Below are positions 10,713 through 56,197 of a DNA stretch of 64,000 nucleotides, piece after piece. Made by a program: the position numbers and the translations under genes. Numbering within the stretch: position 1 is the first letter of the stretch; every line of letters starts with the position of its first letter. The stretch comes from Gemmatimonadaceae bacterium (GTDB lineage: Bacteria; Gemmatimonadota; Gemmatimonadetes; Gemmatimonadales; Gemmatimonadaceae). The DNA is taken from positions 782 to 64,781 of the forward strand of contig JBPPMH010000100.1 in the NCBI GenBank assembly GCA_051305945.1. The letters are read 5' to 3'. A model generated the notes under the pieces. That model was not told where the DNA came from, did not search any database, and saw only the letters and a program-made list of their open reading frames with translations.

Positions 10713-11320
10713 GCTCGATCTTTCAGCCCGCGGGCGGTTGGGTCGAGGTGATCGCCGGCGTGATGTTCAGCGGCAAGAGCGAAGAGCTGATCCGGCGCGT
10801 TCGCCGGTCCCTGATCGCGCGGAAGAAGGCGCAGGTGTTCAAATCGCACCTGGACGAGCGCTATTCGGGGATCTACGCCATTTCCAGTCACGACGGCCGC
10901 GTGGTCGAAGCGATTCCGGTGGATTCGTCTTTGCAGTTGGCACGCGCGGTAGATCCAGGGGCGCACGTCATTGCGATCGACGAAGCCCAGTTTCTGGATG
11001 CGGGTATCGTCGGAGTCGTGAGCGATCTCGCACAGCGCGGTCGCCGGGTGATCGTCGCGGGCACGGACACCGATTTTCGCGGCGAGCCTTTTGGCGCGAT
11101 GCCGCAGCTGATGGCCATAGCCGAGGTCGTGGACAAGCTGCACGCCATCTGCGTCATGTGCGGCGGACCCGCGAGCCGCAATCAGCGGCTGATCGACGGG
11201 AAGCCCGCCCCCTACTCATCCCCCCAGATCATGGTCGGAGCGGCCGATTCGTACGAGGCGCGGTGCCGGATGTGCCATTCCGTGCCGGCGGCGGATGCCG
11301 CGCAGGTGACTCTGCTATAA
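10709..11320 (+). CDS. tdk: Thymidine kinase
   Basis: It has the P-loop [14 protein letters not shown], the motif IAIDEAQF, and a C-terminal Zn ribbon C..C...C..C (AICVMCG...ARCRMCH). There is a 4-nt overlap with the preceding gene. Confidence 0.9.
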
Positions 11321-11351
11321 CTGCCACTATAACTGCCACATAGAACTGCCA
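11316..11351. repeat. 12-nt tandem repeat (TATAACTGCCAC x2 plus ATAGAACTGCCA) overlapping the tdk stop
   Basis: Read directly: ctaTAACTGCCACTATAACTGCCACATAGAACTGCCAag. The related word gaagctgccagc occurs at 11371-11382. Confidence 0.9.
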
Positions 11352-11592
11352 AGCTGGTAGCCGCCAGCAGGAAGCTGCCAGCTACGAGCTAAGGCCCTCG
11401 AATCCCCGCTTGCCCCCCCGCCGTTACGCCCCAACGGGCCTGCGGATAAACGGTTAACGCTTAACGCGCCCCGTATTTCCGTTCCCCGTCATGCGTTTAC
11501 ACAAACTCGGCATTGCTCCTGCCTAGTTAATCCCCCAAAGTGTACTCCCCGCCGGGCAACCGGCGGTTCACCCGCACCCGACCCCTACCGCA

Positions 11593-14442: not shown

Positions 14443-16899
14443 ATGCTTCCATCCGAATGGCGTGAGCTGGAGCCGCTCATCGACCGGATACTCGACGCGC
14501 CCGCTGCGGAGCGCGAAAAGCTCGCGTGGGAGCTGAGCGGCCCGGATCAGGCGCGCTTCGAAGCGCTGATGGAAATGACCTCGGAGTGCGAGAGCGCGGC
14601 ACCTTTTCTGTCGAGACCCGCCGGCGAACGCTTCGCGCGGCTGTTCGACGAGCCGGAAAAGCCAATGCCCGAGGCGCTGGGCAGCTACAGGATAGAGCGC
14701 GAAATCGGTCGCGGCGGGATGGCCCGCGTATACCTCGCCAGGGACGGGAAACATTCCCGCCATGTCGCGGTAAAGGTCATCCGATCCGAGCTCGCGGCGT
14801 CGCTCGGGCGCGAGCGGTTCCTCCGCGAGATCGCGATCGCGGCACGCCTCCGGCACCCGAACATCCTTCCACTGTTCGACTCGGGCGACCAGGACGGGAT
14901 CCTGTACTTCGTGATGCCGTTGGAGGAAGGCCCGTCGCTGCGCCAGTGTCTGGAGAGCGCATCTTCGTTTTCCGTGAGCGAACGGCTGGGAATCCTGCGC
15001 GACATCGCGCGCGCGCTCGCGTACGCCCACGCTCGTGGGGTAGTGCACCGCGACATCAAGCCCGACAACGTGATGTTGTCCAGCGGAGCCGCGGTGGTCA
15101 CTGATTTCGGGATCGCGACGGCCGTCAGCGCCGCGCAGGCTGGCGCTCCCGGAGTTGCGCCGGGTCCCGCCGACTTTGGAGCTGGAACGCCCGAGTACAT
15201 GGCGCCGGAACAGGCGCGCGGCGATCCGAAAACCGATCACCGCGCGGACATTTTTTCTTTCGGAGGCGTGGCCCGTGAGCTTTTCGCCGATACGGCCGCG
15301 CCCAAAGCAGTCTCGGCCCTTATCGCCCGCTGCCTGCAAGAGGATCCGGCCGCGCGGCCGCAGACTGCGCAGGAAATCCTCGCCGAGCTGGAGCGTTCTC
15401 AGGACAGCGCGCGAGGAGTAGTACCCGTGGCTCTCCGCTACCGGGTAGCGGCGGGCGCGGCGGTAGCCGCGGGCCTGCTCGCTCTCGTCGCAATCGCGTA
15501 CACGAGCACGCCCCGTGGCGCGACGGACGCTGCCGGTGACCGGACGGTGGCGGTCCTTCCGCTGGTCAGCGTCGGCGGCGACTCCATGCAGCAGGAGCTT
15601 GCGGACGGATTGAGTGACGAGGTGGCCACCGAGCTCTTCAAGGTGGATGGCGTCAGAGTGGTGAGCCGCCGCGGCGTCCGGAACTATCGCAGGAAGCGCG
15701 ACCTCGATCCCAAAGCAGCGGGCCGGACACTTGGAGCGCGCTTTCTCGTGATGGGGACGCTTCGCGAGGTGGACGGCCGGCTCGTCGTTCTGTCGCAGCT
15801 CCTCGATGCCAGGACAGGGGCGTTGTTGTGGTCGGATCGTTTCGACCGCTCGCAGTTCGATCTTGGTCCGGTTCGCGATGAGATCGTCCGATCTGTCGGC
15901 GATACCATTCGCAGAATTGCCGGCTTGAGCGTCGCGGCCGCGAAGCCACCCGAAGCCAAAGGGCGCAGCAGCAATGCCGACGCCTACCGGCTTTACATCC
16001 TGGCGCAGAATGCGCTTTATCGCCGCGGCCTGAGCATTCAGTCGAGCGTTGACATGTTCAGGCGCGCCACCCAGGTGGACACGATGTACGCGAGCGCGTA
16101 TTCCGGCCTGAGCATGGCGCTCGCACTTTCGCCGCATTTCGGCCCCACCGCGCCCGACCAGGTCGCAACGGAAGCAGCGGCGATGGCGGAGCGGGCGATA
16201 CGCCTCGATTCAACGCTCGCCCAGCCGCACATTGCGCTCGGAGTCGTGCATCAGAACGGCTACGACTGGGCGCGGGCCGGCGCAGAGTTTCGCAAAGCCA
16301 TCTCCCTCGACCCGCGCGATGTCGAAGCGCGTGTGCAGTATGGGAGGCACCTGCTCTTTCGAGGCCGCCTCGACGATGCCTTGCGCCAGTTTCTTTCGGC
16401 GCGGTCGGAAGATCCCGCCTCGGCGCTGGTGTCGAGCTGGGTCTCGTACTCGTACTACGTGCGAGGCGCCATGGATAGCGCGGTCGTGGAGAGCAATCGC
16501 GCCTTCCAGAGCGACTCGAACAACACTACAACTCTTGTTCTCGGTGCCCTCGTCCGGCTCAAGGCGGGGCGCAGTGCAGAGGCGCGCCAGTTCGTGCTGC
16601 GTGGCCCCCCGGCAAACGAGTCGGTGTTTTACGTGTTAGCTGCAATCGGCGATACCGCCGAGGCCATGAAACGGCTTCGCGCGTTCGAGAACACCAGCCC
16701 CCGGCGATGGCGCGCGGAAACAAACCGTGCGTACGCAATGCTGGGGGCAGGTGACACTGAAAAAGCTCTCGATGCGTTCGAGCGCGCAACGGACGCCAGA
16801 GAGATCTGGCCTTCGCTGCATTCCACACACGACCCCATCTTCGATCCCATCCGCGAGAACCCGCGTTTCCAGAAGCTGCTTCGTCGCGTCGGCTTGTAG
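14443..16899 (+). CDS. Ser/Thr protein kinase with a TM segment and periplasmic TolB-N-like plus TPR region
   Basis: Kinase motifs are GRGGMARVY, VAVK, HRDIKPDN, DFGIA and APE. A TM segment (AAVAAGLLALVAIAY) is followed by TVAVLPLVSVGGD... and TPR-like repeats. Confidence 0.9.
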   Translation: MLPSEWRELEPLIDRILDAPAAEREKLAWELSGPDQARFEALMEMTSECESAAPFLSRPAGERFARLFDEPEKPMPEALGSYRIEREIGRGGMARVYLARDGKHSRHVAVKVIRSELAASLGRERFLREIAIAARLRHPNILPLFDSGDQDGILYFVMPLEEGPSLRQCLESASSFSVSERLGILRDIARALAYAHARGVVHRDIKPDNVMLSSGAAVVTDFGIATAVSAAQAGAPGVAPGPADFGAGTPEYMAPEQARGDPKTDHRADIFSFGGVARELFADTAAPKAVSALIARCLQEDPAARPQTAQEILAELERSQDSARGVVPVALRYRVAAGAAVAAGLLALVAIAYTSTPRGATDAAGDRTVAVLPLVSVGGDSMQQELADGLSDEVATELFKVDGVRVVSRRGVRNYRRKRDLDPKAAGRTLGARFLVMGTLREVDGRLVVLSQLLDARTGALLWSDRFDRSQFDLGPVRDEIVRSVGDTIRRIAGLSVAAAKPPEAKGRSSNADAYRLYILAQNALYRRGLSIQSSVDMFRRATQVDTMYASAYSGLSMALALSPHFGPTAPDQVATEAAAMAERAIRLDSTLAQPHIALGVVHQNGYDWARAGAEFRKAISLDPRDVEARVQYGRHLLFRGRLDDALRQFLSARSEDPASALVSSWVSYSYYVRGAMDSAVVESNRAFQSDSNNTTTLVLGALVRLKAGRSAEARQFVLRGPPANESVFYVLAAIGDTAEAMKRLRAFENTSPRRWRAETNRAYAMLGAGDTEKALDAFERATDAREIWPSLHSTHDPIFDPIRENPRFQKLLRRVGL

Positions 16900-45368: not shown

Positions 45369-46093
45369 TCGCCGCCGTGGCGCTCGCGATCCTCACCGGA
45401 ATCGGCTCGGCCGTAGCACCGCCGGCTGTGGACCACCCGTTCGGCGTCGGCGAGAAGCTGGTGTTCGACGTGCGATTCGGTCCTGTCAAGGTCGGAACCA
45501 GCACGATGGAAGTGCGTGAGATCAGTCACATCCGCGGCCGCGCCGCGTACAAGACTTACTTCCGCGTGCAGGGCGGGACCTTCTTCTACAAGGTGGACGA
45601 CATTCTCCAGAGCTGGATAGACACGGAAACGCTGTCTTCCCTGCGCTTTGTGCAGCACCTGCAGGAAGGGTCGCGCGACCGGGAGCGGCACTTCGAGATC
45701 TACCCTGACCGCTCCGTCTACGTGGAAGTCACCAAGAGCCCGACGGAGCACCCGTCGGTGTCGAATCCGCTGGACGACGCATCCTTTCTGTATTTCATCC
45801 GGACCATTCCACTCGAGGTCGGGCAGAGCTACGAGTTCAACCGCTACTTCAGGCCCGATCGCAATCCGGTACGGGTCCGCGTGCTGCGACGCGAGCGGAT
45901 AGTCGTGCCAGCGGGGACGTTCAACGCCATCGTTGTGCGGCCGACGATCAAGACCAAGGGAATCTTCGCGGAGGGCGGCGAAGCTGAGCTGTGGCTGTCC
46001 GACGATGACCGCCGGATGATGCTTCAGCTGAAGACCAAGGTGGCGTTCGGATCGCTGAACCTGTACCTGCGGTCGTTTACACCGGGCAGCTAG
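45365..46093 (+). CDS. DUF3108-like protein
   Basis: It has a signal-like N-terminus and the pattern GEKLVFDVRFGPVKVGTSTMEV. There is an ATGA overlap with the GT2 gene. The family call is from memory. Confidence 0.55.
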   Translation: MIAAVALAILTGIGSAVAPPAVDHPFGVGEKLVFDVRFGPVKVGTSTMEVREISHIRGRAAYKTYFRVQGGTFFYKVDDILQSWIDTETLSSLRFVQHLQEGSRDRERHFEIYPDRSVYVEVTKSPTEHPSVSNPLDDASFLYFIRTIPLEVGQSYEFNRYFRPDRNPVRVRVLRRERIVVPAGTFNAIVVRPTIKTKGIFAEGGEAELWLSDDDRRMMLQLKTKVAFGSLNLYLRSFTPGS

Positions 46094-46096
46094 CAG

Positions 46097-46123
46097 TGAC
46101 TAGCGACTAGTCACTAGTCACCG
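46097..46123. repeat. Heptamer tandem repeat GTGACTA GCGACTA GTCACTA GTCACC
   Basis: Read directly. It starts 4 nt after the stop of the DUF3108-like gene and lies between convergent genes. Confidence 0.9.
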
Positions 46124-46127
46124 TATT

Positions 46128-46361
46128 TCAATATGTGCTGACCCGAGTATCCGACCACCGCTCGCGCAGGCGCCGCGCTGTTCCCGGGCTGACCACACGG
46201 ATCGCGAGATAAGCGATCGCTCCGACGACGGCTATCTTGACCGCCATCACGACCAGCCAGATGGCGATACCCAGCAACCCGCCGAAGATCTTGAACACCA
46301 GACCGAGCGCGAACAGCCCCAGCATGGCGAATAGGCCGGTCATCAGAATTGTGCGGATCAT
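46128..46361 (-). CDS. Small two-to-three-TM membrane protein
   Basis: It reads MIRTILMTGLFAMLGLFALGLVFKIFGGLLGIAIWLVVMAVKIAVVGAIAYLAI.... A GGAGA sits about 8 nt upstream of the ATG. Confidence 0.55.
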   Translation of the reverse strand: MIRTILMTGLFAMLGLFALGLVFKIFGGLLGIAIWLVVMAVKIAVVGAIAYLAIRVVSPGTARRLRERWSDTRVSTY

Positions 46362-46376
46362 GTGAATCTCCAGAGA

Positions 46377-46410
46377 GCTGTTGGCTATTGGCTATTAGCT
46401 GTTGGCTAAT
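46377..46410. repeat. Heptamer tandem repeat CTGTTGG CTATTGG CTATTAG CTGTTGG CTAATC (reverse complement of the CCAACAG type)
   Basis: Read directly. It lies between the divergent small membrane gene and the thiO-like gene. Confidence 0.9.
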
Positions 46411-46448
46411 CAAATCCTTTAGCTCGTCACAGTAAATACGAACCCCGA

Positions 46449-47525
46449 TTGCCAGTGTTTCACTCCGCAGACGTCGCCATCGCCGGCGGCGGGCTCATCG
46501 GCAGGGCCTGCGCGGCCGCGCTGGTCGAGCGCGGAGCCCGGGTGCTCCTCCTCGAGCACGCGAGCATCGGCGAAGCGTCCGTGGCGTCCGCGGGGATGCT
46601 CGCTCCGTCAGTAGAGCGGGCGGACGCCGCCGCGAACAAGCTCGCGCTGGCCGCGCGAGACCGGTATCCGACGTACCTCGAGTGGCTGCGCGAGCGGTCG
46701 GGCATCGAGGTCCCGCTCAACCGCCTCGGCATTCTTCAGGTCGCGCTGTCCGCGGCGGGAGTGAAAGGGCTGCGGAAGTCCGCCAATCCGGAGTCGCAAT
46801 GGCTCGACCGCGCCGAGCTCACCGCCCTCGAGCCCGCGCTGGCTCACGCCTTAGGCGCGTTGTACTCGGCAAGCGACGGCTGCGTGGACAACGTCGCACT
46901 GCTTTCCGCATTGGACGCGATGCTATCGCGAAATCCGCTCGTGAATCGCGACTCCGCACGCGTCACCGGCGTTATTTCCACGGCGGAATCGGTCGCTGTG
47001 ACCACCGCGGATGGTACCCGCTACTCCGCAAGCCACGCTCTGATCGCAGCGGGCGCATGGTCCGCGCAGATCGAGGGCGCGCGACTCGCCGCGGTCGTCG
47101 AGCCGATGCGGGGGCAGCTCGTATCCTTCGCGGCCGCGCCCTGCCGGCACACTCTATATGGGCCACGCGGATACCTCGTCCCGCGCGGAAGCTCTACCAT
47201 CGCCGGCGCGACTTCGGAGCGAGTGGGCTTCACGCCCGGGACGACCGCTCAGGGCACCGCGCGGTTGCGTTCGGCAGCCGGGGAGATCTGCCCGGTGCTG
47301 GCGTCGGCGGCTCCGGCCGCCGCGTGGTCCGGCTTCCGACCGATGACTCCCGACATGCTTCCGCTCATCGGCCCGGACCCCGAGGCGCCCAGGATCCTGT
47401 ACGCCACGGGCCATTCCCGGAACGGCATTCTGCTCGCCCCACTGACCGCCGACATAGTGGCGAATCTGCTTTTTGAGGACGTCCTAAATTTGAATGTCGA
47501 ACGATACCGTCCGGACAGGTTCTAG
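46449..47525 (+). CDS. FAD-dependent oxidoreductase, glycine oxidase (ThiO)-like
   Basis: It has the dinucleotide fold DVAIAGGGLIGRACAAALVERGARVLLLE and DAO-family length, with ...GHSRNGILLAP near the C-terminus. Confidence 0.7.
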   Translation: MPVFHSADVAIAGGGLIGRACAAALVERGARVLLLEHASIGEASVASAGMLAPSVERADAAANKLALAARDRYPTYLEWLRERSGIEVPLNRLGILQVALSAAGVKGLRKSANPESQWLDRAELTALEPALAHALGALYSASDGCVDNVALLSALDAMLSRNPLVNRDSARVTGVISTAESVAVTTADGTRYSASHALIAAGAWSAQIEGARLAAVVEPMRGQLVSFAAAPCRHTLYGPRGYLVPRGSSTIAGATSERVGFTPGTTAQGTARLRSAAGEICPVLASAAPAAAWSGFRPMTPDMLPLIGPDPEAPRILYATGHSRNGILLAPLTADIVANLLFEDVLNLNVERYRPDRF

Positions 47526-48486
47526 GGTACATTCAGAAAATCCAGTGCCGCCTTCCGACCCCGGGGACGCAGCTTTGAATCAACCGCTCTACCAGATTCT
47601 GGGACGCCATAAATCGGAAGCGCTGCCCGACCGGAAGCCCTCGTGGCTGAAGGTTCGCGCCCCGGGTGGAGGTAATTACCTGAAGCTCCGGCAGATGATG
47701 CGGGAGCTCGACCTGCACAGCGTCTGCGAGGAGGCGCGCTGCCCCAACGTGGGCGAGTGCTGGGAGCACGGCGCCGCCACGTTCATGATCCTCGGCGACA
47801 CGTGCACGCGAAACTGCGCGTACTGCGCGGTGAAGCACGGCCGCCCGCCGGCGTACGACGTCGCGGAGCCCGCGCGCGTGGCGGAAGCGATCGCGCGCAT
47901 GGATCTCCGGCACGCCGTGATCACCTCGGTGGACCGCGACGATCTCCCCGACTTCGGCGCGTATATCTTCGCCGAGACTATCCGCCAGATTCACGACCGT
48001 CTGCCCGGCTGTTCCGTGGAAGTTCTCGTGCCCGACTTTCAGGGCAGCGAGACGAGCATCCGCATGGTGCTCGATGCCGGTCCGGAGATCTACAATCACA
48101 ACACCGAGACGGTGCCGCGGCTGTACAAGCGCTGCCGCCCGGGCGGGCGCTACGAGCGCGTGCTGAACATCTTCCGGATAGCGAAGGAAATCGCGCCCCA
48201 CATCCCGACGAAGACCGGAATCATTCTCGGCATGGGCGAGACGATCGAGGAAGTGAAGCAGACGATGGCCGAGCTGCGCCAGGTGGACGTGGACATCCTG
48301 ACGCTCGGGCAGTACCTGCGCCCGTCGAGCTCGCACATCCCGCTCGACCGGTACGTAAAGCCGGAAGAGTTCCGCGACCTGTACGAAACGGGCATGGCGA
48401 TAGGCTTCCGTCACGTGGAGTCGGGCCCGCTCGTGCGCTCGAGCTACCACGCGTGGGAGCAGGTGCAATCGGCGGGCGTGGCGTAA
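47494..48486 (+). CDS. lipA: Lipoyl synthase
   Basis: It has the auxiliary cluster CEEARCPNVGEC and the radical-SAM CTRNCAYC. The ATG at 47494 overlaps the thiO-like 3' end by 32 nt. Confidence 0.95.
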   Translation: MSNDTVRTGSRVHSENPVPPSDPGDAALNQPLYQILGRHKSEALPDRKPSWLKVRAPGGGNYLKLRQMMRELDLHSVCEEARCPNVGECWEHGAATFMILGDTCTRNCAYCAVKHGRPPAYDVAEPARVAEAIARMDLRHAVITSVDRDDLPDFGAYIFAETIRQIHDRLPGCSVEVLVPDFQGSETSIRMVLDAGPEIYNHNTETVPRLYKRCRPGGRYERVLNIFRIAKEIAPHIPTKTGIILGMGETIEEVKQTMAELRQVDVDILTLGQYLRPSSSHIPLDRYVKPEEFRDLYETGMAIGFRHVESGPLVRSSYHAWEQVQSAGVA

Positions 48487-49484
48487 TGGCAAAGAAGCTG
48501 GGCAAAACCAGCAGCTCGAAGGGTGACGCGGAGCTCAACCGCGCATTCCTCCGCTCCATGCTGCTGCAGCGGCGGTTCGAGGAGCGCTCCGCGGAGGCGT
48601 ACGCGCTCGGCAAGATCGGCGGCTTCTGCCACTTGTACATCGGGCAGGAGGCTATCAGCACTGGTGCGCTCTCCGTGATTCGACCCGACGACTACGTGGT
48701 GACCGCGTACCGGGATCACGGCCAGGCGCTCGCGCGCGGAATGACTCCACGCTCGGTCATGGCGGAGCTGTTCGGGCGGCGCGACGGCTGCTCCGGCGGC
48801 AAGGGCGGCTCCATGCACCTGTTCGACGCCAAGATCAACTTCCTCGGGGGGCACGGCATCGTGGGCGGCCACATTCCGCTCGCCGCCGGCGTCGCCTTCG
48901 CGATCAAGTACCGCGGCGGCGACCAGGTCTGCCTGTGCTTTTTCGGCGAGGCCGCCGTCAACATCGGCGCGTTTCACGAGGCGCTGAACATGGCCGGACT
49001 GTGGAAGGTGCCGGCCGTGTTCATCATCGAGAACAACCGCTACGGGATGGGGACGGCGGTATCGCGGGCCATGGCGAACGAGGACGTGGCCGCGCGCGCG
49101 GCGACGTACAGCATGCCTTCGGAGTCCATCGACGGGCAGGACGTATTCGCGGTGCGCGACGCCGTGTCGCGCGCGGTCGAGCGCGCGCGGTCGGAGAAGA
49201 CTCCCACTCTCCTGGAGATGCGTACGTATCGCTTCATGGGCCATTCGATGTCGGATGCGGTCAGCGGCACGTACCGGACGAAGGCCGAACTCGAGGAGGA
49301 GATGCGACGCGACCCGATCATCCTGCTGCACAACCGCATGACGGAGGCGGGAGAGATCGACGACGACGCCTACGCCAAGCTGGACGAGGAGATCAAGGCC
49401 GAAGTCCAGGACGCCTGGGACTTCGCCGACGCAAGCCCGGAACCGGATCTCGAAGAGCTGTACGCGCACTTGCTGGTGGAGTAA
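48486..49484 (+). CDS. pdhA: Pyruvate (2-oxoacid) dehydrogenase E1 alpha subunit
   Basis: I chose the ATG at 48486 (TAATG overlap with lipA). It reads ...LLQRRFEERSAEAYALGKIGGFCHLYIGQEA... and has the TPP motif GGKGGSMH. Confidence 0.9.
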   Translation: MAKKLGKTSSSKGDAELNRAFLRSMLLQRRFEERSAEAYALGKIGGFCHLYIGQEAISTGALSVIRPDDYVVTAYRDHGQALARGMTPRSVMAELFGRRDGCSGGKGGSMHLFDAKINFLGGHGIVGGHIPLAAGVAFAIKYRGGDQVCLCFFGEAAVNIGAFHEALNMAGLWKVPAVFIIENNRYGMGTAVSRAMANEDVAARAATYSMPSESIDGQDVFAVRDAVSRAVERARSEKTPTLLEMRTYRFMGHSMSDAVSGTYRTKAELEEEMRRDPIILLHNRMTEAGEIDDDAYAKLDEEIKAEVQDAWDFADASPEPDLEELYAHLLVE

Positions 49485-49486
49485 CC

Positions 49487-50470
49487 ATGGCCATCGTGAC
49501 GTACAGAGATGCGCTCAACCAGGCGCTCCGCGAGGAGATGCAGCACGACGACCGCGTCTTCCTGATGGGCGAGGAGGTTGGCGAGTACAATGGCGCGTAC
49601 AAGGTCTCGCGCGGACTGCTGGACGAGTTCGGCCCGATGCGCGTGGTGGACACGCCCATCGCGGAGCTGGGATTCGCCGGCATCGGCGTGGGCGCAGCGA
49701 TGGTCGGCTTGCGGCCGGTCATCGAGTTCATGACGTGGAACTTCGCGCTGCTCGCTATCGACCAGGTGGTGAACGCCGCGGCCAAGATGCTGTACATGTC
49801 CAACGGGCAGTTCCCCATGCCGATGGTGTTCCGCGGTCCGAACGGGGCTGCGCTGCAACTTTCCGCGCAGCATTCCCAGGCCTGGGAGAGCTGGCTCGCC
49901 CACATCCCCGGCCTCAAGGTCGTGACACCCGCGACGCCGTACGACGCGAAGGGCCTGCTGAAGAGCGCGATCAGGGACGACAACCCCGTGGTCTTCCTCG
50001 AAGGCGAGATGCTGTACAACACCAAGGGCGAGGTCCCCGAGGGTGAGGAGATTCTCATTCCGCTCGGCAAGGCCGAGCGCAAGCGCGAGGGCGAGCACTG
50101 CTCGATCATAGCGCACGGCAAGACCGTGCTCATCGCCATCCAGGTGGCCGACGCGCTCGCCAAGGAAGGAATCACCATCGACGTCATCGATCTCCGCACG
50201 GTGCGTCCCATGGACGTGGACGCGATCACCGAGTCCGTGAAGAAGACCAATCGGGCGGTCGTCGTAGAGGAAGGGTGGGAGCTGTGCGGTGTCGGCGCGC
50301 AGGTGGTGGATTACATCCAGCGCGAGTGCTTCGATTTTCTCGACGCCCCGGTGTTGCGGGTGCACCAGGCCGACACGCCGATGCCGTACGCCAAGAACCT
50401 GGAGCGCGCGGCCAAGCCCGACGCGCAGAAAGTGACCGCCGCCGTGCGCAAAGTCCTGTACCTCGAGTGA
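49487..50470 (+). CDS. pdhB: Pyruvate (2-oxoacid) dehydrogenase E1 beta subunit
   Basis: I chose the ATG at 49487. It reads MAIVTYRDALNQALREEM..DDRVFLMGEEVGEYNGAYKVS.GL. Confidence 0.9.
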   Translation: MAIVTYRDALNQALREEMQHDDRVFLMGEEVGEYNGAYKVSRGLLDEFGPMRVVDTPIAELGFAGIGVGAAMVGLRPVIEFMTWNFALLAIDQVVNAAAKMLYMSNGQFPMPMVFRGPNGAALQLSAQHSQAWESWLAHIPGLKVVTPATPYDAKGLLKSAIRDDNPVVFLEGEMLYNTKGEVPEGEEILIPLGKAERKREGEHCSIIAHGKTVLIAIQVADALAKEGITIDVIDLRTVRPMDVDAITESVKKTNRAVVVEEGWELCGVGAQVVDYIQRECFDFLDAPVLRVHQADTPMPYAKNLERAAKPDAQKVTAAVRKVLYLE

Positions 50471-50476
50471 TCGCCA

Positions 50477-51889
50477 ATGGCCACTAAAGTCGTGATGGAG
50501 GCGCTCTCGCCGACGATGGAAGAGGGCCGTCTCGTCAAATGGACGAAGAACGAAGGTGACGCGGTCAAGTCCGGCGAGATCCTCGCCGAGGTGGAAACCG
50601 ACAAGGCCGTGATGGAGCTGGTCGCGCGCGGCGACGGCGTCCTGCGCAAGCGGCTGATCAACGAGGGCGACACCGCCCCCGTGGGCCAGCTGATCGCGAT
50701 CGTGGCCGCGGCCGACGAGAACATCGACGAGCTGGCGGGTGGCGGGGCCGCGGCGCCGCCGGCAGCCAAGCCAGAAGAGGCTGCGCCGGAATCCGGCGCA
50801 GGCAAGACCGAAGGGGCTGCAGCGCCCGCCGAACCGCCCGCGGACCGCGTAGCCGACGGCCGAACCTCCGTTCCCGAAGACGCCTCGCACTCCCAGGGCG
50901 AGGCCTCAATGCCCCCGCAGGAACGCGACCGGAGAGGCGCGGAGCGATTCGCGACCGATTCGCGCGGTGCCGCGGTCGGCGGAGGCCAGGCGGAGCCCGG
51001 CGATCGCGTGCGCTCTTCCCCGCTGGCGCGAAAGCTCGCTTCCGACCGCGGCGTCGAGCTGGGAGGCATTCAGGGATCGGGCCCGGGCGGCCGCATCGTC
51101 AAGCGCGACATCGAGCAGGCCGCGACTCAGCCGCAGCGCGGCGCGGCAGCGGCGGGCACGCACCGCGCCGCGGCTCCGGTGGCCGAGCGGAAGATCTCCA
51201 CCGAGGGTGATTACCAGGACATCCCACTCACGCAGATCCGCAAGACGATCGCGCGCCGGCTCGCCGAGTCCATCGGCCCTGTGCCGACTTTCTATCTCAC
51301 CGCCGAGCTCGATGTCGAGCGCGTCGCGGAGATGCGCGAAGCGATGATCGAGCTCGGCGACCAGTACAAGGTCTCGTTCAACGACATCGTGCTGAAGGCA
51401 GCGGCTACCGCGCTCCAACAGCACCCGGAAGTGAACGCGCACTGGCTCGGCGACAAGATGCGCTACTTCAACCGCGTGCACGTGGGAATGGCCGTGGCCG
51501 TCGAGGACGGGCTCATCACGCCGGTCATCTTCGACGCCGACAAAAAGGGCCTCGCCGACATATCGCGCGAGGCGCGCGAGCTCGCCAAGCGCGCCCGCGA
51601 CCGGAAGCTCAAGCCCGACGAATACACGGGCGCCACGTTCTCCGTGTCGAACCTCGGGATGTTCGGGATCGAGCACTTTACCGCGATCATCAATCCGCCC
51701 GAAGCCGCGATCCTCGCCGTCGGCGGCGTGGAGGAGCGCGTCGTGGCGGTGGACGGCGCGCCCGCCATCCGCAAGCGGATGACCGTGACGATGAGCTGCG
51801 ATCACCGCGTCATTGACGGCGCCACGGGCGCGAAGTTCCTGCAGACACTTCGCCGTCTCATCGAGAATCCGCTCATGCTCGTCTACTGA
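50477..51889 (+). CDS. Dihydrolipoamide acyltransferase E2
   Basis: It has a lipoyl domain (EVETDKAVMEL), an E3-binding domain (SSPLARKLASDRGVELGGIQGSGPGGRIVKRDIE) and a catalytic DHRVIDG. Confidence 0.9.
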   Translation: MATKVVMEALSPTMEEGRLVKWTKNEGDAVKSGEILAEVETDKAVMELVARGDGVLRKRLINEGDTAPVGQLIAIVAAADENIDELAGGGAAAPPAAKPEEAAPESGAGKTEGAAAPAEPPADRVADGRTSVPEDASHSQGEASMPPQERDRRGAERFATDSRGAAVGGGQAEPGDRVRSSPLARKLASDRGVELGGIQGSGPGGRIVKRDIEQAATQPQRGAAAAGTHRAAAPVAERKISTEGDYQDIPLTQIRKTIARRLAESIGPVPTFYLTAELDVERVAEMREAMIELGDQYKVSFNDIVLKAAATALQQHPEVNAHWLGDKMRYFNRVHVGMAVAVEDGLITPVIFDADKKGLADISREARELAKRARDRKLKPDEYTGATFSVSNLGMFGIEHFTAIINPPEAAILAVGGVEERVVAVDGAPAIRKRMTVTMSCDHRVIDGATGAKFLQTLRRLIENPLMLVY

Positions 51890-51890
51890 G

Positions 51891-51920
51891 CCAACAGCCA
51901 ACAGCCAAGAGCCAACAGCT
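51891..51920. repeat. Heptamer tandem repeat CCAACAG CCAACAG CCAAGAG CCAACAG ct, filling the E2-lpd intergenic gap
   Basis: Read directly. It runs from 2 nt after the E2 TGA up to the lpd ATG at 51921. Confidence 0.9.
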
Positions 51921-53324
51921 ATGTCTTCCTTTGACGTGATCTTCATCGGCGGCGGACCGGCCGGGTATGTCGGCGCCATTCGCAGCGCGCAGCTCGGCAT
52001 GTCGGTCGCGGTCGTCGAGCGCGACGGACTCGGCGGCACCTGCGTGTTGTGGGGATGCATCCCCGCCAAGGCGCTGCTCGAGGCGGCTTCGATCGCCAAT
52101 CGCGTGAAGCACGCGGCCGACTTCGGCGTGAACGTCGGCGAGATCAAGCTCGACTACTCCGTGGCCATGAAGCGCTCACGCGCGGTCAGTACGCAGAACT
52201 CGAAGGGCGTGGAGTTCCTCTTCAAGAAGAACAAGATCACGCACATCAAGGGCACGGCGAGGCTCGCGGGCAAGAACTCCGTCTCGGTCAAGACCGCGGA
52301 CGGGAAGGAAGAGAAGCACGACGCGAAGAAAGCGATCGTCGTCTCCACCGGCTCGCGGGTGAAGGGCCTGCCGCAGGCCGGCCTCGAGCTCAACAAGACC
52401 ACCGTCATCTCGTCCGACGAGGCGCTCGTCCTGGAGCAGGCGCCGAAGACAATGGCGATCGTCGGCGCGGGCGCGGTCGGCTGCGAGTTCGCGGACGTGT
52501 TCAACGCCTTCGGCACGGCGGTGACGCTGATAGACATCGCGCCGGTGATTCTCCCGCTCGAGGACGCCGACTGCTCAGCCGAGCTGACGAAGGCGTTCAA
52601 GAAGCGGAAGATCGACGTGATCACTGGCGCGAAGATCTCCAACGTGAAGGTCGGCAAGAGCTCGGTGAAGCTGAGCGTGGAGGCCGGCGGCAAGAAGACC
52701 GATCTGGAAGTGGAGAAGGTGCTCGTGGCCGCTGGACGCGCGCCGAACATCGACGACATCGGCCTCAAGGAGGCGGGAGTCAAGATCAACGAGCGCGGCT
52801 TCGTCGAGATTAACGAGCGGATGGAGACGAGCGCGAAGGGCATTTACGCCATCGGCGACGTGGCCGGCCCGCCGATGCTCGCGCACAAGGGCTCGCGCGA
52901 GGGCTTGGTGCTCGCGGAGATCCTGGCGGGCCACGCGACGCACGGGGTCAACTACTCCAACATCCCGAACGCGACCTACTGTCATCCAGAGGTCGCGTCC
53001 ATCGGCCTGACCGAGCAGCAGTGCAAGGAAAAGAAGCTCGAGTACAAGGTCGGCAGGTTTCCCTTCTCCGCCAACGGCCGCGCGCGCACGTCAGGCGAAA
53101 CGGAAGGATTCGTAAAGATCATTCGCGACGCCAAGTACGGCGAGATCCTCGGCGCCCACATCGTCGGCGCGCACGCCACGGAGCTGATTCACGAGCTGGC
53201 TGTCGCGCGGGAGAACGAGTTCACGGTAGAGGAGATTGATCTCGCGGTTCATGCTCATCCCACGCTGGCGGAGGCTGTGGCGGAAGCGGCGCTGGATTCG
53301 CTTGGCAGGTTGATTCACGCCTGA
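51921..53324 (+). CDS. lpdA: Dihydrolipoyl dehydrogenase E3
   Basis: I chose the ATG at 51921. It has FDVIFIGGGPAGYVGA, the redox-active GGTCVLWGCIPAK and the C-terminal HAHPTLAE. Confidence 0.95.
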   Translation: MSSFDVIFIGGGPAGYVGAIRSAQLGMSVAVVERDGLGGTCVLWGCIPAKALLEAASIANRVKHAADFGVNVGEIKLDYSVAMKRSRAVSTQNSKGVEFLFKKNKITHIKGTARLAGKNSVSVKTADGKEEKHDAKKAIVVSTGSRVKGLPQAGLELNKTTVISSDEALVLEQAPKTMAIVGAGAVGCEFADVFNAFGTAVTLIDIAPVILPLEDADCSAELTKAFKKRKIDVITGAKISNVKVGKSSVKLSVEAGGKKTDLEVEKVLVAAGRAPNIDDIGLKEAGVKINERGFVEINERMETSAKGIYAIGDVAGPPMLAHKGSREGLVLAEILAGHATHGVNYSNIPNATYCHPEVASIGLTEQQCKEKKLEYKVGRFPFSANGRARTSGETEGFVKIIRDAKYGEILGAHIVGAHATELIHELAVARENEFTVEEIDLAVHAHPTLAEAVAEAALDSLGRLIHA

Positions 53325-53349
53325 TTGGTGACTAGTCACTAGTCACCAA
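53325..53349. repeat. Perfect 25-nt palindrome TTGGTGACTAGT-C-ACTAGTCACCAA ((GTCACTA)-type units)
   Basis: Read directly. It occupies the whole gap between the lpd TGA (53322-24) and the lipB ATG (53351), apart from 1 nt. Confidence 0.95.
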
Positions 53350-53350
53350 C

Positions 53351-54025
53351 ATGCCCCAGCTCTGGACCGCCGCGCTCGGCACAATGCCCTACGGCGAAGC
53401 GCTGGAGCTGCAGCGCGCCGTGGCCGCAGATCGCATCTCCGGAAAGATTCCCGAGGACGTGCTGCTGCTCGTGGAGCATCCGCCCGTCGTCACTCTGGGA
53501 AGGTCCAGCAAGGACGCGCACCTCACGGCGTCGCCCGAACTGTTGAAGCTGCGCGGCGTCGGGCTGTTCGAGGTTGAGCGCGGCGGCGACGTGACGTTTC
53601 ACGGCCCCGGACAGCTCGTCGGCTACCCGATCATCGACCTCAAGCGGCACAAGCAGGATCTGCACTGGTATCTGCGAACGGTCGAGCAGGCGCTCATAGA
53701 CACGCTGGAAGCGCTCGGAATCGCCGCGGGGCGGAACACCGGCTACACCGGCGTATGGACGGGCGGGAAGAAGATCGCGTCCATAGGCGTCCACGCGCGC
53801 GACTGGGTGACGTGGCACGGCTTCGCTCTCAACGTGACCACGGACCTCTCGTACTTCGACCTGATCGTCCCGTGCGGAATTCAGGACGTGACGATGACCT
53901 CGATCGCGCGCGAGCTGCCCGCGGGCGAGGTGGCCTTCGAGCGCGTCGCGAAGACGGTCACGAACGCGCTCGCAAAGCTCCTCGAGCTCACCCCGGTATC
54001 GGTGTCGCCAGGTCAGTTACGCTGA
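53351..54025 (+). CDS. lipB: Octanoyltransferase LipB
   Basis: It reads ...LLLVEHPPVVTLGR...RGGDVTFHGPGQLVGYPI...KIASIGV...HGFALNV. Confidence 0.9.
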   Translation: MPQLWTAALGTMPYGEALELQRAVAADRISGKIPEDVLLLVEHPPVVTLGRSSKDAHLTASPELLKLRGVGLFEVERGGDVTFHGPGQLVGYPIIDLKRHKQDLHWYLRTVEQALIDTLEALGIAAGRNTGYTGVWTGGKKIASIGVHARDWVTWHGFALNVTTDLSYFDLIVPCGIQDVTMTSIARELPAGEVAFERVAKTVTNALAKLLELTPVSVSPGQLR

Positions 54026-54071
54026 GTCTGTCAAAGGTCTGCACATCGGGTGCAGCCGTATATTTTGAGAA

Positions 54072-56147
54072 GTGACCGATATACCGCGCACCTATCAGCG
54101 CCGCGCGCGCGTCGCCGATCCCGCGGCGGCACGGAGCGACCTCGCCGCCGACCTCAATCCCGTCCAAGCCGCGGCGGCGACGCACGGCGACGGCCCGCTG
54201 CTGATCATCGCTGGCGCCGGCACCGGCAAGACGCGCACGCTGGTGTATCGCGTGGCGCATCTCATCGAGCGCGGCGTCAGGCCGGAGAGAATCCTGCTGC
54301 TCACCTTCACCCGCCGCGCTTCGCAGGAGATGCTGTCGCGCGCGGAGCGGCTGGCCGGCGGGAGCAGTCGCAGCGTGCACGGCGGAACGTTCCACGCCAC
54401 GGGGCACCGATTGCTACGGCGCTTCGGCGAGAGCGCCGGAATCCCGAAGGACTTCAGCATCATGGATCAGGGCGACTCCGAGGACCTGATGCAGCTCTCA
54501 CGCGCGCAGCTCGGCTACGCCAAAGGCGCGAAGCGGTTTCCCAAGAAGGAGACGCTGCAATACGTGTACTCCAGGCACGTGAACACGGGCTTCGAGATAA
54601 AGGAGATCATCCGCGACGAGTACCCGCAGTTCACCGACTACATCGACGATTTCCGCAAGATCTACGGTGATTACACCAAGCGGAAGCACGAGCGAAACCT
54701 CGTGGACTACGACGACCTGCTGCTGTTCTGGGCGGGGCTGCTGGAGGAAGCGCCGGCGCTCGCCGACCGGATCGCCGCGCTGTACGACCACATCCTGGTG
54801 GACGAGTACCAGGACACGAACGCGCTGCAGGCGCGCATCCTCCGCGGCATGTGCCGCACGCACTCCAACATCACCGTCGTCGGCGACGACGCGCAGAGCA
54901 TCTACTCTTTCCGCGGCGCCAACTTCCGCAACATTCTCGATTTCCCCGGGCAGTTCCCCGGCACGACGGTCGTGGCGCTCGAGCAGAACTACCGCTCCAC
55001 ACCGGAGATACTCGACGCGACCAACGAGCTGATTGCGCGGGCGCAGGAACGGTTCACCAAGCAGCTCTGGACCGAGCGGTCGGTCGGGGAGAAGCCGTGG
55101 CTCGTGGCCGCGCGCGACGAGCAACAGCAGACCATTTTCGTGGTGGACCGCATCCTCGAGCTGCACGAGGAGGGAATGAACCTGCGCGACATGGCCGTGC
55201 TGTTCCGCGCGGGATACATGTCGGCGGATCTCGAGATCGAGCTGACCAACCGCAAGATCCCGTTCGAGAAGTGGGGCGGGATCAAGTTCCTCGAGACGGC
55301 GCACGTTAAGGACGTGCTCGCGTTCCTGCGCATCCTGGAGAACCCGCGCGACGAAGTGAGCTGGTATCGGATCCTCCAGCTGCTGCCGGGCATCGGCGAG
55401 ACGACGGCGCGCGCGGCGATTGACTCGATGGCCGCCCTGGCGTGGGAGTCCGGCGCGTTCGGCCGCTTCAACCCGCCCGCCCGCGCGCGCGCGGCCCACA
55501 CGGCCCTCGTAGCGTTGCTCGACAGACTGCGCACGGGCGAGAGCGCCGACGCGGGTTCGGTGAGCGCGGAGATCGCCGGCGTGCGATCCATGTACGACGG
55601 CATTCTCAAGGAGCGTTACGACCGCGCGGAGCCGCGACTCGCCGACCTCGACCAGCTCCAGGTCATCGCCGCTGGCTACCCCGACCGCGAAGCGTTTCTC
55701 TCGGCGCTCGCCCTGGAGCCGCCGCAGGCGACGCAGGACCTGGTCGGCGACAAGTCCCGCAGCGAGGACGACTGCCTCGTGCTGAGCACCGCGCACTCCG
55801 CCAAGGGAAAGGAGTGGAACGCCGTGTTCGTCATCTGGGCGCTCGACGGCTGGTTCCCATCCTCGCGCTCGCTGTCGGACCCCGAGCAGCTGGAGGAGGA
55901 GCGCCGCCTGATGTACGTGGCGATGACCCGCGCGCGTGACCACCTCGCGGTGATCTACCCCTTGAACAGCTACGGCTCGCGCATGGGCTCCGATTATTTC
56001 GTCGCCCAGCTCTCACGCTTCATCGACGCCGGCGTGCGCGAGAAGATGGAGCGCGTCACCCTGGCCGCCCCACCAATTGAGCAGGCCCCCGAGACCCAGC
56101 TCCCGACCGTCGATCTCCGCGCCCTTCTCCGCGGCCGCTTCGGGTAG
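54072..56147 (+). CDS. UvrD/Rep/PcrA-family ATP-dependent DNA helicase
   Basis: It has LNPVQAAAA, the Walker A AGAGTGKTRTL, DEYQDTN, and the later motifs VVGDDAQSIYSFRGA, TAHSAKGKEW and YVAMTRAR. The start is a GTG. Confidence 0.9.
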   Translation: MTDIPRTYQRRARVADPAAARSDLAADLNPVQAAAATHGDGPLLIIAGAGTGKTRTLVYRVAHLIERGVRPERILLLTFTRRASQEMLSRAERLAGGSSRSVHGGTFHATGHRLLRRFGESAGIPKDFSIMDQGDSEDLMQLSRAQLGYAKGAKRFPKKETLQYVYSRHVNTGFEIKEIIRDEYPQFTDYIDDFRKIYGDYTKRKHERNLVDYDDLLLFWAGLLEEAPALADRIAALYDHILVDEYQDTNALQARILRGMCRTHSNITVVGDDAQSIYSFRGANFRNILDFPGQFPGTTVVALEQNYRSTPEILDATNELIARAQERFTKQLWTERSVGEKPWLVAARDEQQQTIFVVDRILELHEEGMNLRDMAVLFRAGYMSADLEIELTNRKIPFEKWGGIKFLETAHVKDVLAFLRILENPRDEVSWYRILQLLPGIGETTARAAIDSMAALAWESGAFGRFNPPARARAAHTALVALLDRLRTGESADAGSVSAEIAGVRSMYDGILKERYDRAEPRLADLDQLQVIAAGYPDREAFLSALALEPPQATQDLVGDKSRSEDDCLVLSTAHSAKGKEWNAVFVIWALDGWFPSSRSLSDPEQLEEERRLMYVAMTRARDHLAVIYPLNSYGSRMGSDYFVAQLSRFIDAGVREKMERVTLAAPPIEQAPETQLPTVDLRALLRGRFG

Positions 56148-56163
56148 TTCCTATGTCTTGGCA

Positions 56164-56197
56164 GTTACTAGTCACTAGTCACTAATCACTAGTCACC
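56164..56197. repeat. Heptamer tandem repeat GTTACTA GTCACTA GTCACTA ATCACTA GTCACC followed by TTTTT
   Basis: Read directly. It lies between convergent uvrD-like and aminopeptidase genes. Its last unit supplies the aminopeptidase codons ...GD and the TAG stop on the minus strand. Confidence 0.9.

Follow-up and report, generated by a model that had tools for sequence, protein, structure and literature searches.

Intergenic heptamer arrays of a Gemmatimonadaceae genome are probably reduced copies of a lineage-wide hairpin repeat family tied to PF05635 cassettes

The window, a 64,000-nt stretch from the 2.7-Mb genome of a soil Gemmatimonadaceae bacterium, contains five intergenic 7-nt tandem arrays of two types, GTCACTA (family A) and CCAACAG (family B). 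They had been singled out in an earlier sequence-only reading, and all five were recovered by Tandem Repeats Finder (TRF). At 46095..46123 (TRF match 46095-46121, AGTCACT, 3.9 copies), a family-A collapsed palindrome, AGTGACTAG-CGA-CTAGTCACTAGTCAC, which has no strand, separates the convergent genes of a DUF3108 protein (stop 46091-46093) and of a 77-aa membrane protein (minus strand, stop 46128-46130). Its RNA is predicted to fold at -14.2 kcal/mol (z -3.3) on the plus strand and at -19.8 kcal/mol (z -4.6) on the minus strand. The other end of the 77-aa gene faces a family-B single arm on the minus strand (46377..46410, from TRF and sequence; TRF match 46377-46408, 4.6 copies), which reads (CCAACAG/CCAATAG)n on that strand, is unstructured (z +0.25) and, lying in a divergent gap, stops 15 nt short of the ATG (46361). 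The earlier claim that the gaps are almost filled by arrays adjoining stop codons fails for this arm, which is flanked by two start codons and takes up about one-third of a 93-nt gap.

The E2-lpd gap is, in turn, made up entirely of an array. A family-B single C-rich arm on the plus strand, (GCCAACA)x4.4 (51889..51920; TRF match 51889-51919, AGCCAAC, 4.4 copies), runs from the E2 stop (51887-51889) to the lpd ATG (51921), a 31-nt gap that lacks a Shine-Dalgarno sequence; this arm is also unstructured (z +0.9). From the lpd stop (53322-53324) to the lipB ATG (53351), the gap is occupied by a second strandless family-A collapsed palindrome, UUGGUGACUAG-UCA-CUAGUCACCAA (53325..53349; TRF match 53331-53346, ACTAGTC), with an RNA fold of -18.8 kcal/mol (z -5.9). 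The last array, at 56160..56197 (from TRF and sequence; TRF match 56163-56196, AGTCACT, 4.9 copies), is a family-A single arm whose minus strand reads as the G-rich arm GGTGACTAGTGATTAGTGACTAGTGACTAGTAACTGCC and which terminates in a conserved inner-end motif, TAGTAACTGC, enriched in 19 of 39 spacers; it folds weakly (z -0.5 on the plus and -2.5 on the minus strand). Its adjacency to a stop codon stands in modified form: the array begins 16 nt past the uvrD stop, while its other end overlaps and provides the TAG stop (56189-56191) of the minus-strand aminopeptidase gene. The window displays reduced forms only, namely two collapsed mini-palindromes (46097 and 53325) and three single arms, and none of the five arrays has a full-size stem.

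A genome-wide scan, which the sequence-only reading had proposed, revealed 379 period-7 arrays, compared with 138 of period 8 and 26 of period 5 (TRF). Of the period-7 arrays, 276 are intergenic, whereas those of other periods are 74-100% coding, except for period 14, which is TRF's call of the same arrays. On concatenated intergenic DNA, 270 period-7 arrays were found versus 4-11 in each of five first-order Markov simulations of this DNA; taking periods 7 and 14 together, the 282 intergenic arrays are ~35-fold above simulation. In the window as in the genome, the heptamers follow each other head to tail in at least three copies, 17.9 in one array, and are over-represented and concentrated in non-coding DNA, as in heptanucleotide LSSR/STRR-like repeats. 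The units called by TRF are ACTAGTC, AATCACT, AACAGCC, AATAGCC, AGCAGCT and AATCACC; those of the named families (STRR1-3, GGGAATC, TAACTGA) are not among them. By our own comparison, some units differ by a single change, CCAACAG resembling the STRR3 unit CAACAGT and TGATAAC resembling TAACTGA. The avoidance of CTAG and its concentration in the arrays, both stated in the sequence-only reading, are confirmed for the whole genome: CTAG occurs 1391 times versus 8416 expected from base composition, 51% of these sites fall in the intergenic 10% of the genome, and ACTAGT is intergenic in 285 of 346 cases, practically all of the 285 lying within arrays. The five arrays of the window are probably local, mostly truncated copies of a hairpin-forming intergenic repeat family of ~280 members.

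The complete element opens with a G-rich arm of ~31 nt (~4.4 units, such as GTGACTA or GCTRTTG), continues with a 4-130-nt spacer and closes with a complementary C-rich arm (TAGTCAC or CCAAYAG). It is the same on both strands and folds to a ~30-bp stem, with folding energies of the pairs ranging from -16 to -134 kcal/mol. The arms show a length peak at 31 nt (interquartile range 29-34). In families A and B, the G-rich arm comes first in 44 pairs and second in none, all seven pairs between convergent genes obey this order, and only two of the 44 mix arm families; outside the genus, 13 pairs are G-first versus one C-first. Convergent pairs of the Xanthomonas type, with G-rich strands converging and able to form stem-loops, are therefore found genome-wide, as are inverted hairpin doublets with remnant singlets resembling REPINs. 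[quoted passage not shown] Note that sense and antisense strands fold equally (p = 0.10), which gives no pointer to selection on one transcript strand. Hairpins are present in the 16S-23S spacer and around 5S, 23 of the 50 tRNA genes are no more than 120 nt from an array, and arrays also lie upstream of start codons in divergent gaps.

We then compared six gaps around the lipA/E1/E2/lpd/lipB operon among five congeners, and the presence, absence and copy-number differences for which the sequence-only reading had suggested looking are all seen. Gaps are empty or hold a single arm, a collapsed palindrome or a full pair; the full hairpins measure 105-118 nt, sometimes of a different unit, and unit types comprise GTGACTA, GTGATCA, ATCAGGT and GGTTTGT. 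The E2-lpd gap is empty in L002 (TGATG overlap), holds 3.4 copies in L004 and 4.6 in L008, and in L001 and L010 is taken up by full hairpins (G-arm/spacer/C-arm) of 110-118 nt. The lpd-lipB gap harbors a shorter palindrome, GGTGACTAGTCACC, in L010, full 109-112-nt pairs with oppositely oriented spacers in L001 and L002, a full pair of GTGATCA units in L004, and no array in L008. In L004, a full 59-nt pair with GTGATCA arms replaces the palindrome of 46095..46123, and the gap of the 46377..46410 arm carries an array in L004 and L010 as well. Units switch genome-wide between congeners and are wholly different in related species and genera (mostly stop-free in the latter), with the architecture unchanged. 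No two gene-less spacers are near-identical, so nothing indicates that families A and B moved in a recent burst; no target-site duplication, bar a possible TA, was seen at empty versus filled sites or at a duplicated cassette.

The same arms bracket a small gene. It encodes a 125-aa protein (PF05635, E 4e-36; also TIGR02436; PDB 2GSC, E 6e-22) of the 23S-rRNA-intervening-sequence or Avd-like four-helix-bundle family, with 6 copies in this genome and 5-14 per genome across the genus, versus presence in one of 14 control genomes. The copy at C119:21072-21383 is flanked by (GTGATTA)4.6 and (ACTAATC)4.3, and copies in sister genomes sit between GTGACTA, GCTATTG or GTGATCA arms, in agreement with the dispersed arrays of each genome. 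Bracketing by inverted repeats exceeds the 99th percentile of 400 random genes for 24 of 26 PF05635 copies (Mann-Whitney p = 9e-16). Protein clades map one-to-one to arm families, a correspondence mostly borne by orthologous loci; the clades of A and B are sisters. In samples of 20-40 kb per genome, 13 genomes without PF05635 have no array in ~310 kb and 16 genomes with it have ~27 arrays in ~400 kb, a correlation partly confounded with phylogeny; two PF05635-rich genomes (11 and 5 copies) are without arrays in their sampled 20-40 kb.

One genome carries a 682-nt cassette at two loci with 98.7% identity. The cassette interior, ~480 nt, has a single ORF, and no transposase is present in the PF05635 cassettes. 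Gene-less spacers show no similarity to the family-A cassette interior (mean local score 15.1 versus 15.7 for shuffles), so only the arms are common and an origin by internal deletion lacks support. Together with the missing transposase and target-site duplication (bar the possible TA), this led us to reject a MITE; an accessory Avd of a DGR was also discarded, given the NF033474 match (E 0.0023, 18 bits versus a cut-off of 80) and the short one-ORF interior. From the shared arms, and from the one arm family per paralogue, the gene-less hairpins are most likely a non-coding population belonging to the PF05635 cassettes, in the way that REPINs go with RAYT genes. ORF-less short 23S intervening sequences exist in Salmonella.

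Reports of intergenic heptamers began in 1990 with cyanobacteria and were later extended to Xanthomonas, Beggiatoaceae and Geobacter, without an established origin, partner or function. The GGGAATC/GGGGAYT heptamers of Xanthomonas and Nostoc form ~70 convergent stem-loop-capable pairs per Xanthomonas genome, mostly transcribed (Rehm et al, 2015; PMC4692102). They share with the present arrays the intergenic 7-nt tandems and the convergent pairs, and the nearest solved PF05635 structure, 2GSC, comes from Xanthomonas campestris, although Rehm et al make no mention of a PF05635 gene; the units here differ, are not G-quadruplex-forming, occur in another phylum and belong to several families per genome. 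The STRR of filamentous cyanobacteria and the TAACTGA repeats of Beggiatoaceae, Cyanobacteria and Bacteroidetes are likewise intergenic heptamers, in 2-6 copies, placed in forward orientation directly 5' of starts in lieu of a ribosome-binding site, next to genes without functional bias (MacGregor, 2015; PMC4679880). Unlike TAACTGA, almost all direct with one inverted set, the present elements have the inverted pair as their basic form, with units specific to the genus. For Geobacter metallireducens, Aklujkar et al (2009; PMC2700814) describe multicopy elements of 4-5 heptamers in tandem with an annotation as putative global regulatory sites; these lie within as well as between genes, unlike here, and the parts of that paper describing them report no hairpin pairing or associated gene. 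The sequence-only reading knew of no description of the element; this applies to Gemmatimonadota, for which nothing on heptamer repeats was found, the lineage and the PF05635 link being new to the searchable literature, but not to heptamer repeats including convergent pairs, already published for Xanthomonas, Nostoc, Beggiatoaceae and Geobacter (PMC4692102, PMC4679880, PMC2700814).

Two other systems combine inverted repeats with a protein gene. As in REPIN-RAYT (Bertels & Rainey, 2011; PMC3116915), there are hundreds of intergenic copies, spacered inverted doublets giving long hairpins, singlets that resemble decayed remnants, and protein paralogues each flanked by their own repeat family. 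Of the four roles proposed from the window, only that of a REP-like mobile repeat captured the dispersed hairpin-forming intergenic family, gained and lost as a unit between species, but not the transposase: RAYT (Y1_Tnp, PF01797) gave no match in any of 10 genus genomes, with a search that works on controls and is positive in other genera. Instead, the associated gene encodes a four-helix bundle with no known catalytic activity, and heptamer tandems make up the arms in place of a fixed 20-25-nt palindrome. The 23S intervening sequences with an S23p ORF of Coxiella and Leptospira have a ~28-bp stem, cut by RNase III in Coxiella (PMC4990558), and here too terminal inverted repeats enclose a PF05635 (S23p) ORF. 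In contrast, the present cassettes and hairpins occupy intergenic positions and the spacers of rRNA and tRNA genes, with heptamer arms and in hundreds of copies, and the 23S genes of G002 and G006 (2964 nt, matching the full 2925-position model) have no large insert at helix 9, 25 or 45.

The reading that we consider probable is that the arrays are reduced copies of lineage-wide palindromic intergenic elements with heptamer arms, tied to PF05635 cassettes. The elements reside in presumably transcribed spacers (operon junctions, gene ends, tRNA and rRNA spacers) and, between species, are gained, lost, replaced, collapsed by spacer deletion or halved, with arm copy number shifting by slippage; their decay would yield the mini-palindromes and single arms of the window. 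By analogy with the 23S intervening sequences, RNase III may cut the stems from RNA, which would render inter-cistron insertions almost harmless. The polarity could stem from the need for a G-poor, start-codon-free arm just upstream of a start, and the PF05635 protein may recognise or propagate its cognate arms. Only tentatively do we propose that these proteins, Avd-like pentameric four-helix bundles, are dedicated sequence-specific partners of the heptamer-array hairpins, each paralogue recognising its own ~31-nt arm (~4.5 heptamers) and maintaining or propagating the gene-less hairpins without a transposase.

Ordinary slippage-prone simple repeats under replication bias (Mrazek and colleagues, 2007), with no element identity, partner protein or function, would also account for the varying copy numbers upstream of lpd (3.4, 4.4 and 4.6), the array of 17.9 copies, the drift of units between species, and the prevalence of heptamers, which outnumber the other long repeat classes in many bacteria (PMC4679880, PMC4692102). 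We hold this to be unlikely, as it predicts neither the sharp 31-nt length peak, the 44:0 inverted pairing nearly always within one arm family and the appearance or disappearance of entire 105-118-nt units where stop and start codons overlap, nor the PF05635 bracketing (24 of 26) and the absence of arrays from the sampled parts of related PF05635-less genomes. It is less likely still that the arrays are RNA or ssDNA platforms for an abundant host protein, tuning translation initiation or coupling at cistron junctions. Candidates with a footprint of ~7 nt would be a cold-shock-domain protein, several units holding a Y-box core (ATTGG/CCAAT), or ribosomal protein S1; the CCAACAG arrays are unstructured, and the C-rich arm of family A prevails within 30 nt upstream of starts (49:3). 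There the array takes the place of the Shine-Dalgarno sequence: none of the 47 genes with an array within 12 nt upstream has a GGAG/GAGG motif, found in just 24% of genes overall, and a parallel role has been proposed for the Beggiatoaceae TAACTGA repeats (PMC4679880). However, units that differ completely between relatives while the architecture stays constant are hard to square with a conserved housekeeping binder, and arrays are equally common between convergent genes and around tRNAs.

Two of the functions suggested from the window alone fare worse. The three GTCACTA-type arrays do have stop codons in all six frames, the family-A G-rich type bearing TGA/TAG faces the gene within 10 nt past the stop (60:15), and many genes have their stop codon in the array itself (offsets -1 to -9), as expected if the arrays insulated translation in six frames or backed up the stop codons where genes end. 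Yet a gene ending inside a stop-containing array that abuts it is trivial, CCAACAG arrays are free of stops (none across the six frames at 51891), most units of other genera are stop-free too, and divergent gaps as well as tRNA and rRNA spacers also contain arrays; with the genome-wide survey arguing against it, a general insulator role is very improbable. Slightly more remote are intrinsic, possibly bidirectional, terminators and an assembly or vector artefact. The TTTTT run after the 56164 array and the seven pairs between convergent genes would fit termination, but the neighbours of 30 of the 44 pairs are co-directional genes, among them those of the E1-E2-E3-lipB operon, the CCAACAG arrays lack structure, and no array is among the 10 terminator-like sites (G+C-rich stem and T run ending a transcription unit) between 45500 and 57500. 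ACTAGT is indeed a SpeI site; an artefact is refuted by the recurrence of arrays, with sequence variation, at the orthologous gaps of MAGs assembled independently in separate studies.

The association of PF05635 with the arms, preferred here over these alternatives, offers a testable lead on the nature of bacterial heptamer repeats: a small, poorly understood gene carries the same arms and co-varies with the arrays, which are absent from the sampled genomes without it. If true, the partnership would explain the heptamers of cyanobacteria, Xanthomonas, Bacteroidota, Geobacter and Gemmatimonadales, and would give the '23S rRNA intervening-sequence protein' a function. The essential-operon gaps that are empty, half-filled or filled among sister species constitute a natural experiment. 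The arrays break short-read assemblies and supply the stops and upstream regions of many genes, features that gene callers and models of ribosome-binding sites in Gemmatimonadales ought to consider.

On re-examination, the five heptamer arrays of the window were located where the sequence-only reading had placed them (46095-46123, 46377-46410, 51889-51920, 53325-53349 and 56160-56197), and its observation as a whole is confirmed. The source genome is a 2.7-Mb draft of 66% G+C in 184 contigs, in which the window spans 782-64781 of contig C100, and the nearest relatives of the window are Gemmatimonadaceae MAGs. Over the whole genome, period 7 is the most enriched repeat period, with 379 arrays versus 138 for period 8 and 26 for period 5. 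Using a codon-usage gene finder built for this analysis (2452 genes, 90% coding), we placed 276 of these 379 in intergenic DNA; for the other periods, 74-100% of arrays are coding, with the exception of period 14, under which TRF lists the period-7 arrays again. A genome-wide scan, which the earlier reading had proposed as a check, returned 270 period-7 arrays in intergenic DNA versus 4-11 in Markov simulations. The canonical units (ACTAGTC in 88 arrays, AATCACT in 40, AACAGCC in 29, AATAGCC in 27, AGCAGCT in 20 and AATCACC in 18) are linked as a chain of variants one or two bases apart. The expectation that CTAG is avoided and concentrated in the arrays also held: CTAG is six-fold under-represented genome-wide, and half of the CTAG sites and 82% of the ACTAGT sites fall in the intergenic tenth of the genome, almost all within arrays. 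The longest array, (GTCACTA) x17.9 over 125 nt (contig C168, 3986-4110), lies between convergent genes and overlaps both of their stop codons.

We then examined the 282 intergenic arrays together with their flanking sequence. Their basic organisation is not the single array but an inverted pair: a G-rich arm, e.g. (GTGACTA)n in family A or (GCTRTTG)n in family B, is followed by a spacer of 4-130 nt and by the complementary C-rich arm, (TAGTCAC)n or (CCAAYAG)n. In these two families, 44 pairs have the G-then-C order and none the reverse, with the order kept in all gene contexts (16 and 14 co-directional, 7 convergent, 6 divergent). Arm length peaks sharply at 31 nt (interquartile range 29-34) in paired and single arms alike, the inner ends carry conserved TAGTAAC(T/G)GC and its complement GC(A/C)GTTACTA, and the pairs fold into long stems. 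The arrays form a dispersed family of hairpins whose arms have a fixed length and polarity. Single arrays are polarized too: in the 30 nt preceding a start codon, the C-rich type lies on the sense strand in ratios of 28:3 (family A) and 16:7 (family B). Among family A arrays within 10 nt past a stop codon, paired or single, the G-rich type is ahead by 60:15, and the first repeat units supply the stop codon of many genes (offsets -1 to -9). GGAG or GAGG was found in none of the 47 genes having an array within 12 nt upstream. For predicted genes in general, one of these motifs lies at -18 to -4 in about 24%, an approximate figure given that the start codons come from a crude gene finder, and Shine-Dalgarno use in the genome looks low.

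By eye, many spacers seemed to share a conserved core, AACGGCGGAA..GGG, but k-mer counts traced the strong enrichment to the inner stem ends described above. The G-rich spacer strand has no fixed orientation relative to gene direction (10:5), no near-identical spacers were seen among the hairpins, and Rfam gave only sub-threshold matches to miRNA-precursor models, i.e. generic long hairpins.

The window arrays are reduced forms of this hairpin element. The array at 53325-53349 folds into a hairpin of 11 bp with a 3-nt loop (-18.8 kcal/mol, z -5.9), and 46095-46123 is a collapsed palindrome resembling it. The two CCAACAG arrays (starting at 46377 and 51891) are unstructured single arms, and 56160-56197, likewise a single arm, has the inner-end motif and gives the minus-strand aminopeptidase gene its stop codon. 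The flanking genes encode a DUF3108 protein, a 77-aa membrane protein, an FAD oxidoreductase, LipA, E1 alpha, E1 beta, E2, Lpd, LipB, UvrD and the aminopeptidase. Two details of the earlier description did not stand: the 46377 array, said to adjoin a stop codon, sits between two start codons, and no frame of the CCAACAG array at 51891 contains a stop.

The comparison across relatives that had also been proposed revealed differences in presence, absence and copy number at the orthologous gaps of five congeneric MAGs (loci L001, L002, L004, L008 and L010). Between lipA and E1 alpha, the window has an empty TAATG overlap, L001 and L010 carry a 107-nt family B hairpin, and L004 carries a 103-nt (GGTTTGT)n hairpin. 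The E1 alpha-E1 beta gap is empty in the window and in L004, and is occupied by a 105-nt hairpin in L001 (GTGACTA) and in L010 (ATCAGGT). Between E2 and lpd, single arms are present in the window (4.4 copies), L004 (3.4) and L008 (4.6), a full hairpin of 110-118 nt in L001 and L010, and nothing in L002 (TGATG). The lpd-lipB gap holds a collapsed palindrome in the window and a shorter one in L010, no array in L008, full pairs with spacers in opposite orientation in L001 and L002, and a full pair with GTGATCA arms in L004. The hairpin family therefore turns over at orthologous gaps: between species, whole elements are gained, lost, replaced, inverted, collapsed and halved within an essential operon. 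On a broader scale, 9 of 10 genomes of the genus are rich in the ACTAGTCAC pattern, which other genera almost entirely lack; in one congener (G004), the GTGATCA type takes its place. Other Gemmatimonadaceae genera have their own units (GGTGATC, AGGTCAA, GGTCCGT, GAGGTGC, AGGGTTT and others) with the architecture kept, at about 4.4 copies per arm and a G-first order of 13:1. In 20-kb samples, arrays are present in two families of the order and were not found in three genomes from other families of the class or five from other classes. Note that one contig labelled Thermoanaerobaculia (Acidobacteriota; L023) encodes an Lpd 82% identical to the Gemmatimonadaceae protein of the window, and is probably mis-binned.

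Array frequency per kb of intergenic DNA is about equal in co-directional, convergent and divergent gaps. Genome-wide, an array lies no more than 120 nt from 23 of the 50 tRNA genes; at two sites (C16:5145-5333 and C184:4836-5060) a single tRNA is enclosed by an inverted pair. In relatives, complete heptamer hairpins lie in rRNA operon spacers (L159, 1353-1487 and 4475-4728; L156, 4822-4896; L157, 1246-1306), one of them ending 14 nt before the 5' end of 23S, and arms lie on either side of the expected 5S position downstream of 23S. A classical intervening sequence within the 23S gene was not present, this gene being uninterrupted in two genomes of the genus. The hairpins thus occur in operon-junction, tRNA and rRNA spacers, which are normally transcribed, and from this placement the elements are almost certainly transcribed. 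Nearly every spacer of a seven-tRNA gene cluster (C119:10416-11224) has heptamer arrays. On the same contig, infA (translation initiation factor IF-1; 15974-16446), enclosed by G-rich and C-rich arrays of family A, is the sole ordinary gene so enclosed by same-family arms.

The hairpin family is associated, physically and phylogenetically, with cassettes encoding a PF05635 protein (23S-rRNA-intervening-sequence/Avd-like four-helix bundle). Searches with the cassette protein gave hits to PF05635 (E 4e-36), to TIGR02436 ('four helix bundle protein') and to structure 2GSC from Xanthomonas campestris (E 6e-22), and a weak one to the DGR Avd model. There are six copies in the source genome and 5-14 per genome of the genus; the domain is found in 36 of 41 relatives versus 1 of 14 well-known control genomes. 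One copy (C119:21072-21383) lies exactly between (GTGATTA)4.6 and (ACTAATC)4.3, four others have different G-then-C tandem arms on their two sides, and the sixth has none. In sister genomes, the arms around the gene are (GTGACTA)/(TAGTCAC) or (GCTATTG)/(AGCCAAC), with (GTGATCA)/(TGATCAC) in G004; they are always of the unit type dominant among the dispersed arrays of that genome. For 24 of 26 copies, the flanking inverted repeats exceed the 99th percentile of 400 random genes (p = 9e-16). In a maximum-likelihood tree, each well-supported clade corresponds to one arm family, a match mostly carried by orthologous loci, and the family A clade is sister to the family B clade, mirroring the similarity of their units. 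Genomes without PF05635 (n = 13) have no array of at least three copies in ~310 kb, versus ~27 arrays in ~400 kb for those with it (n = 16), a contrast also seen within the order, from a sampling that is thin and partly phylogenetic; the samples of two PF05635-rich genomes had no arrays. A 682-nt cassette of another arm family is present at two loci of one genome (L127 and L128) with 98.7% identity and unrelated flanks, and so has been copied as a unit. These duplicates end TAACTGCC...GGCAGTTA, possibly reflecting a TA target. No target-site duplication is visible and the cassettes contain no transposase. In the window, a half element of the arm family of this duplicated cassette lies directly past a stop codon at 11315-11382 (TAACTGCCAC.., then AGCTGCC-type heptamers); its full form brackets a PF05635 gene in sister genomes.

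Several explanations can be set against these data. The sequence-only reading had offered six-frame translational insulators, which the stop-free CCAACAG array rejects, and hairpin terminators, also rejected as a terminator and promoter scan gave nothing at the arrays. Selection for a strand-specific RNA does not fit the equal folding energies of sense and antisense strands (p = 0.10, 30 co-directional pairs). Telomerase-like break healing with G-rich repeats would explain the G-then-C order, but it predicts about 38% mixed-family pairs, versus 2 of 44 observed. G arms resembling Shine-Dalgarno sequences, and C arms resembling their complement, are seen in several genera (GAGGTGC, GGTGATC) but are not general (GCTGTTG, GGTTTGT). 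Nor is there support for a derivation of the gene-less hairpin spacers from the cassette interior, to which they have no detectable relation. The hairpin/PF05635 system works like REPIN-RAYT (PMC3116915), but a RAYT or IS200-like partner is absent and there is no Y1 transposase, which defines that system. The cassettes likewise resemble protein-coding 23S intervening sequences but lie outside the 23S gene.

We propose that the PF05635 protein recognises the arms cognate to it, or propagates them. Points that sit poorly with this partnership are the lack of detectable kinship between gene-less spacers and the cassette interior, the absence of near-identical spacers, of target-site duplications and of a cassette-borne transposase, and the equal folding of both strands, together with the orthology and sampling limits noted above. 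The ~30-bp RNA stems may be RNase III substrates, by analogy with Coxiella, where this enzyme cuts a 28-bp stem enclosing a gene of this type (PMC4990558); such cutting would account for the tolerance of insertions in tRNA and rRNA spacers and at junctions of overlapping cistrons. Polarity is perhaps partly under selection, because the GTG/TTG starts and TGA/TAG stops of the G-rich arm would do harm immediately ahead of a start codon. The element itself may also impose this polarity, given the 7:0 ratio for pairs between convergent genes, a context that lacks start codons. Passages of published work on other phyla describe heptamers as the dominant long simple repeat, convergent pairs capable of forming stem-loops, positions that sister species share while array length varies, and arrays immediately before start codons (PMC4692102, PMC4679880, PMC2700814). 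Our literature search found no paper on heptamer repeats in Gemmatimonadota or tying PF05635 to such repeats. The family is a novel form of a known sort of repeat, and PF05635 is a testable candidate for its partner gene.

Of the heptamer arrays, 16 lie at contig ends, which suggests that they break short-read assemblies. Other dispersed intergenic repeats, distinct from the heptamer hairpins of families A-C, are found at C10:22227-22266, C111:35802-35894, C18:7278, C152:5346 and elsewhere; these additional families include ..ACTACAATCGACGATCGACGACTAA.. and GGACTGAGGACTGAGGACCCTTGCGGCCTCAGTCC hairpins.
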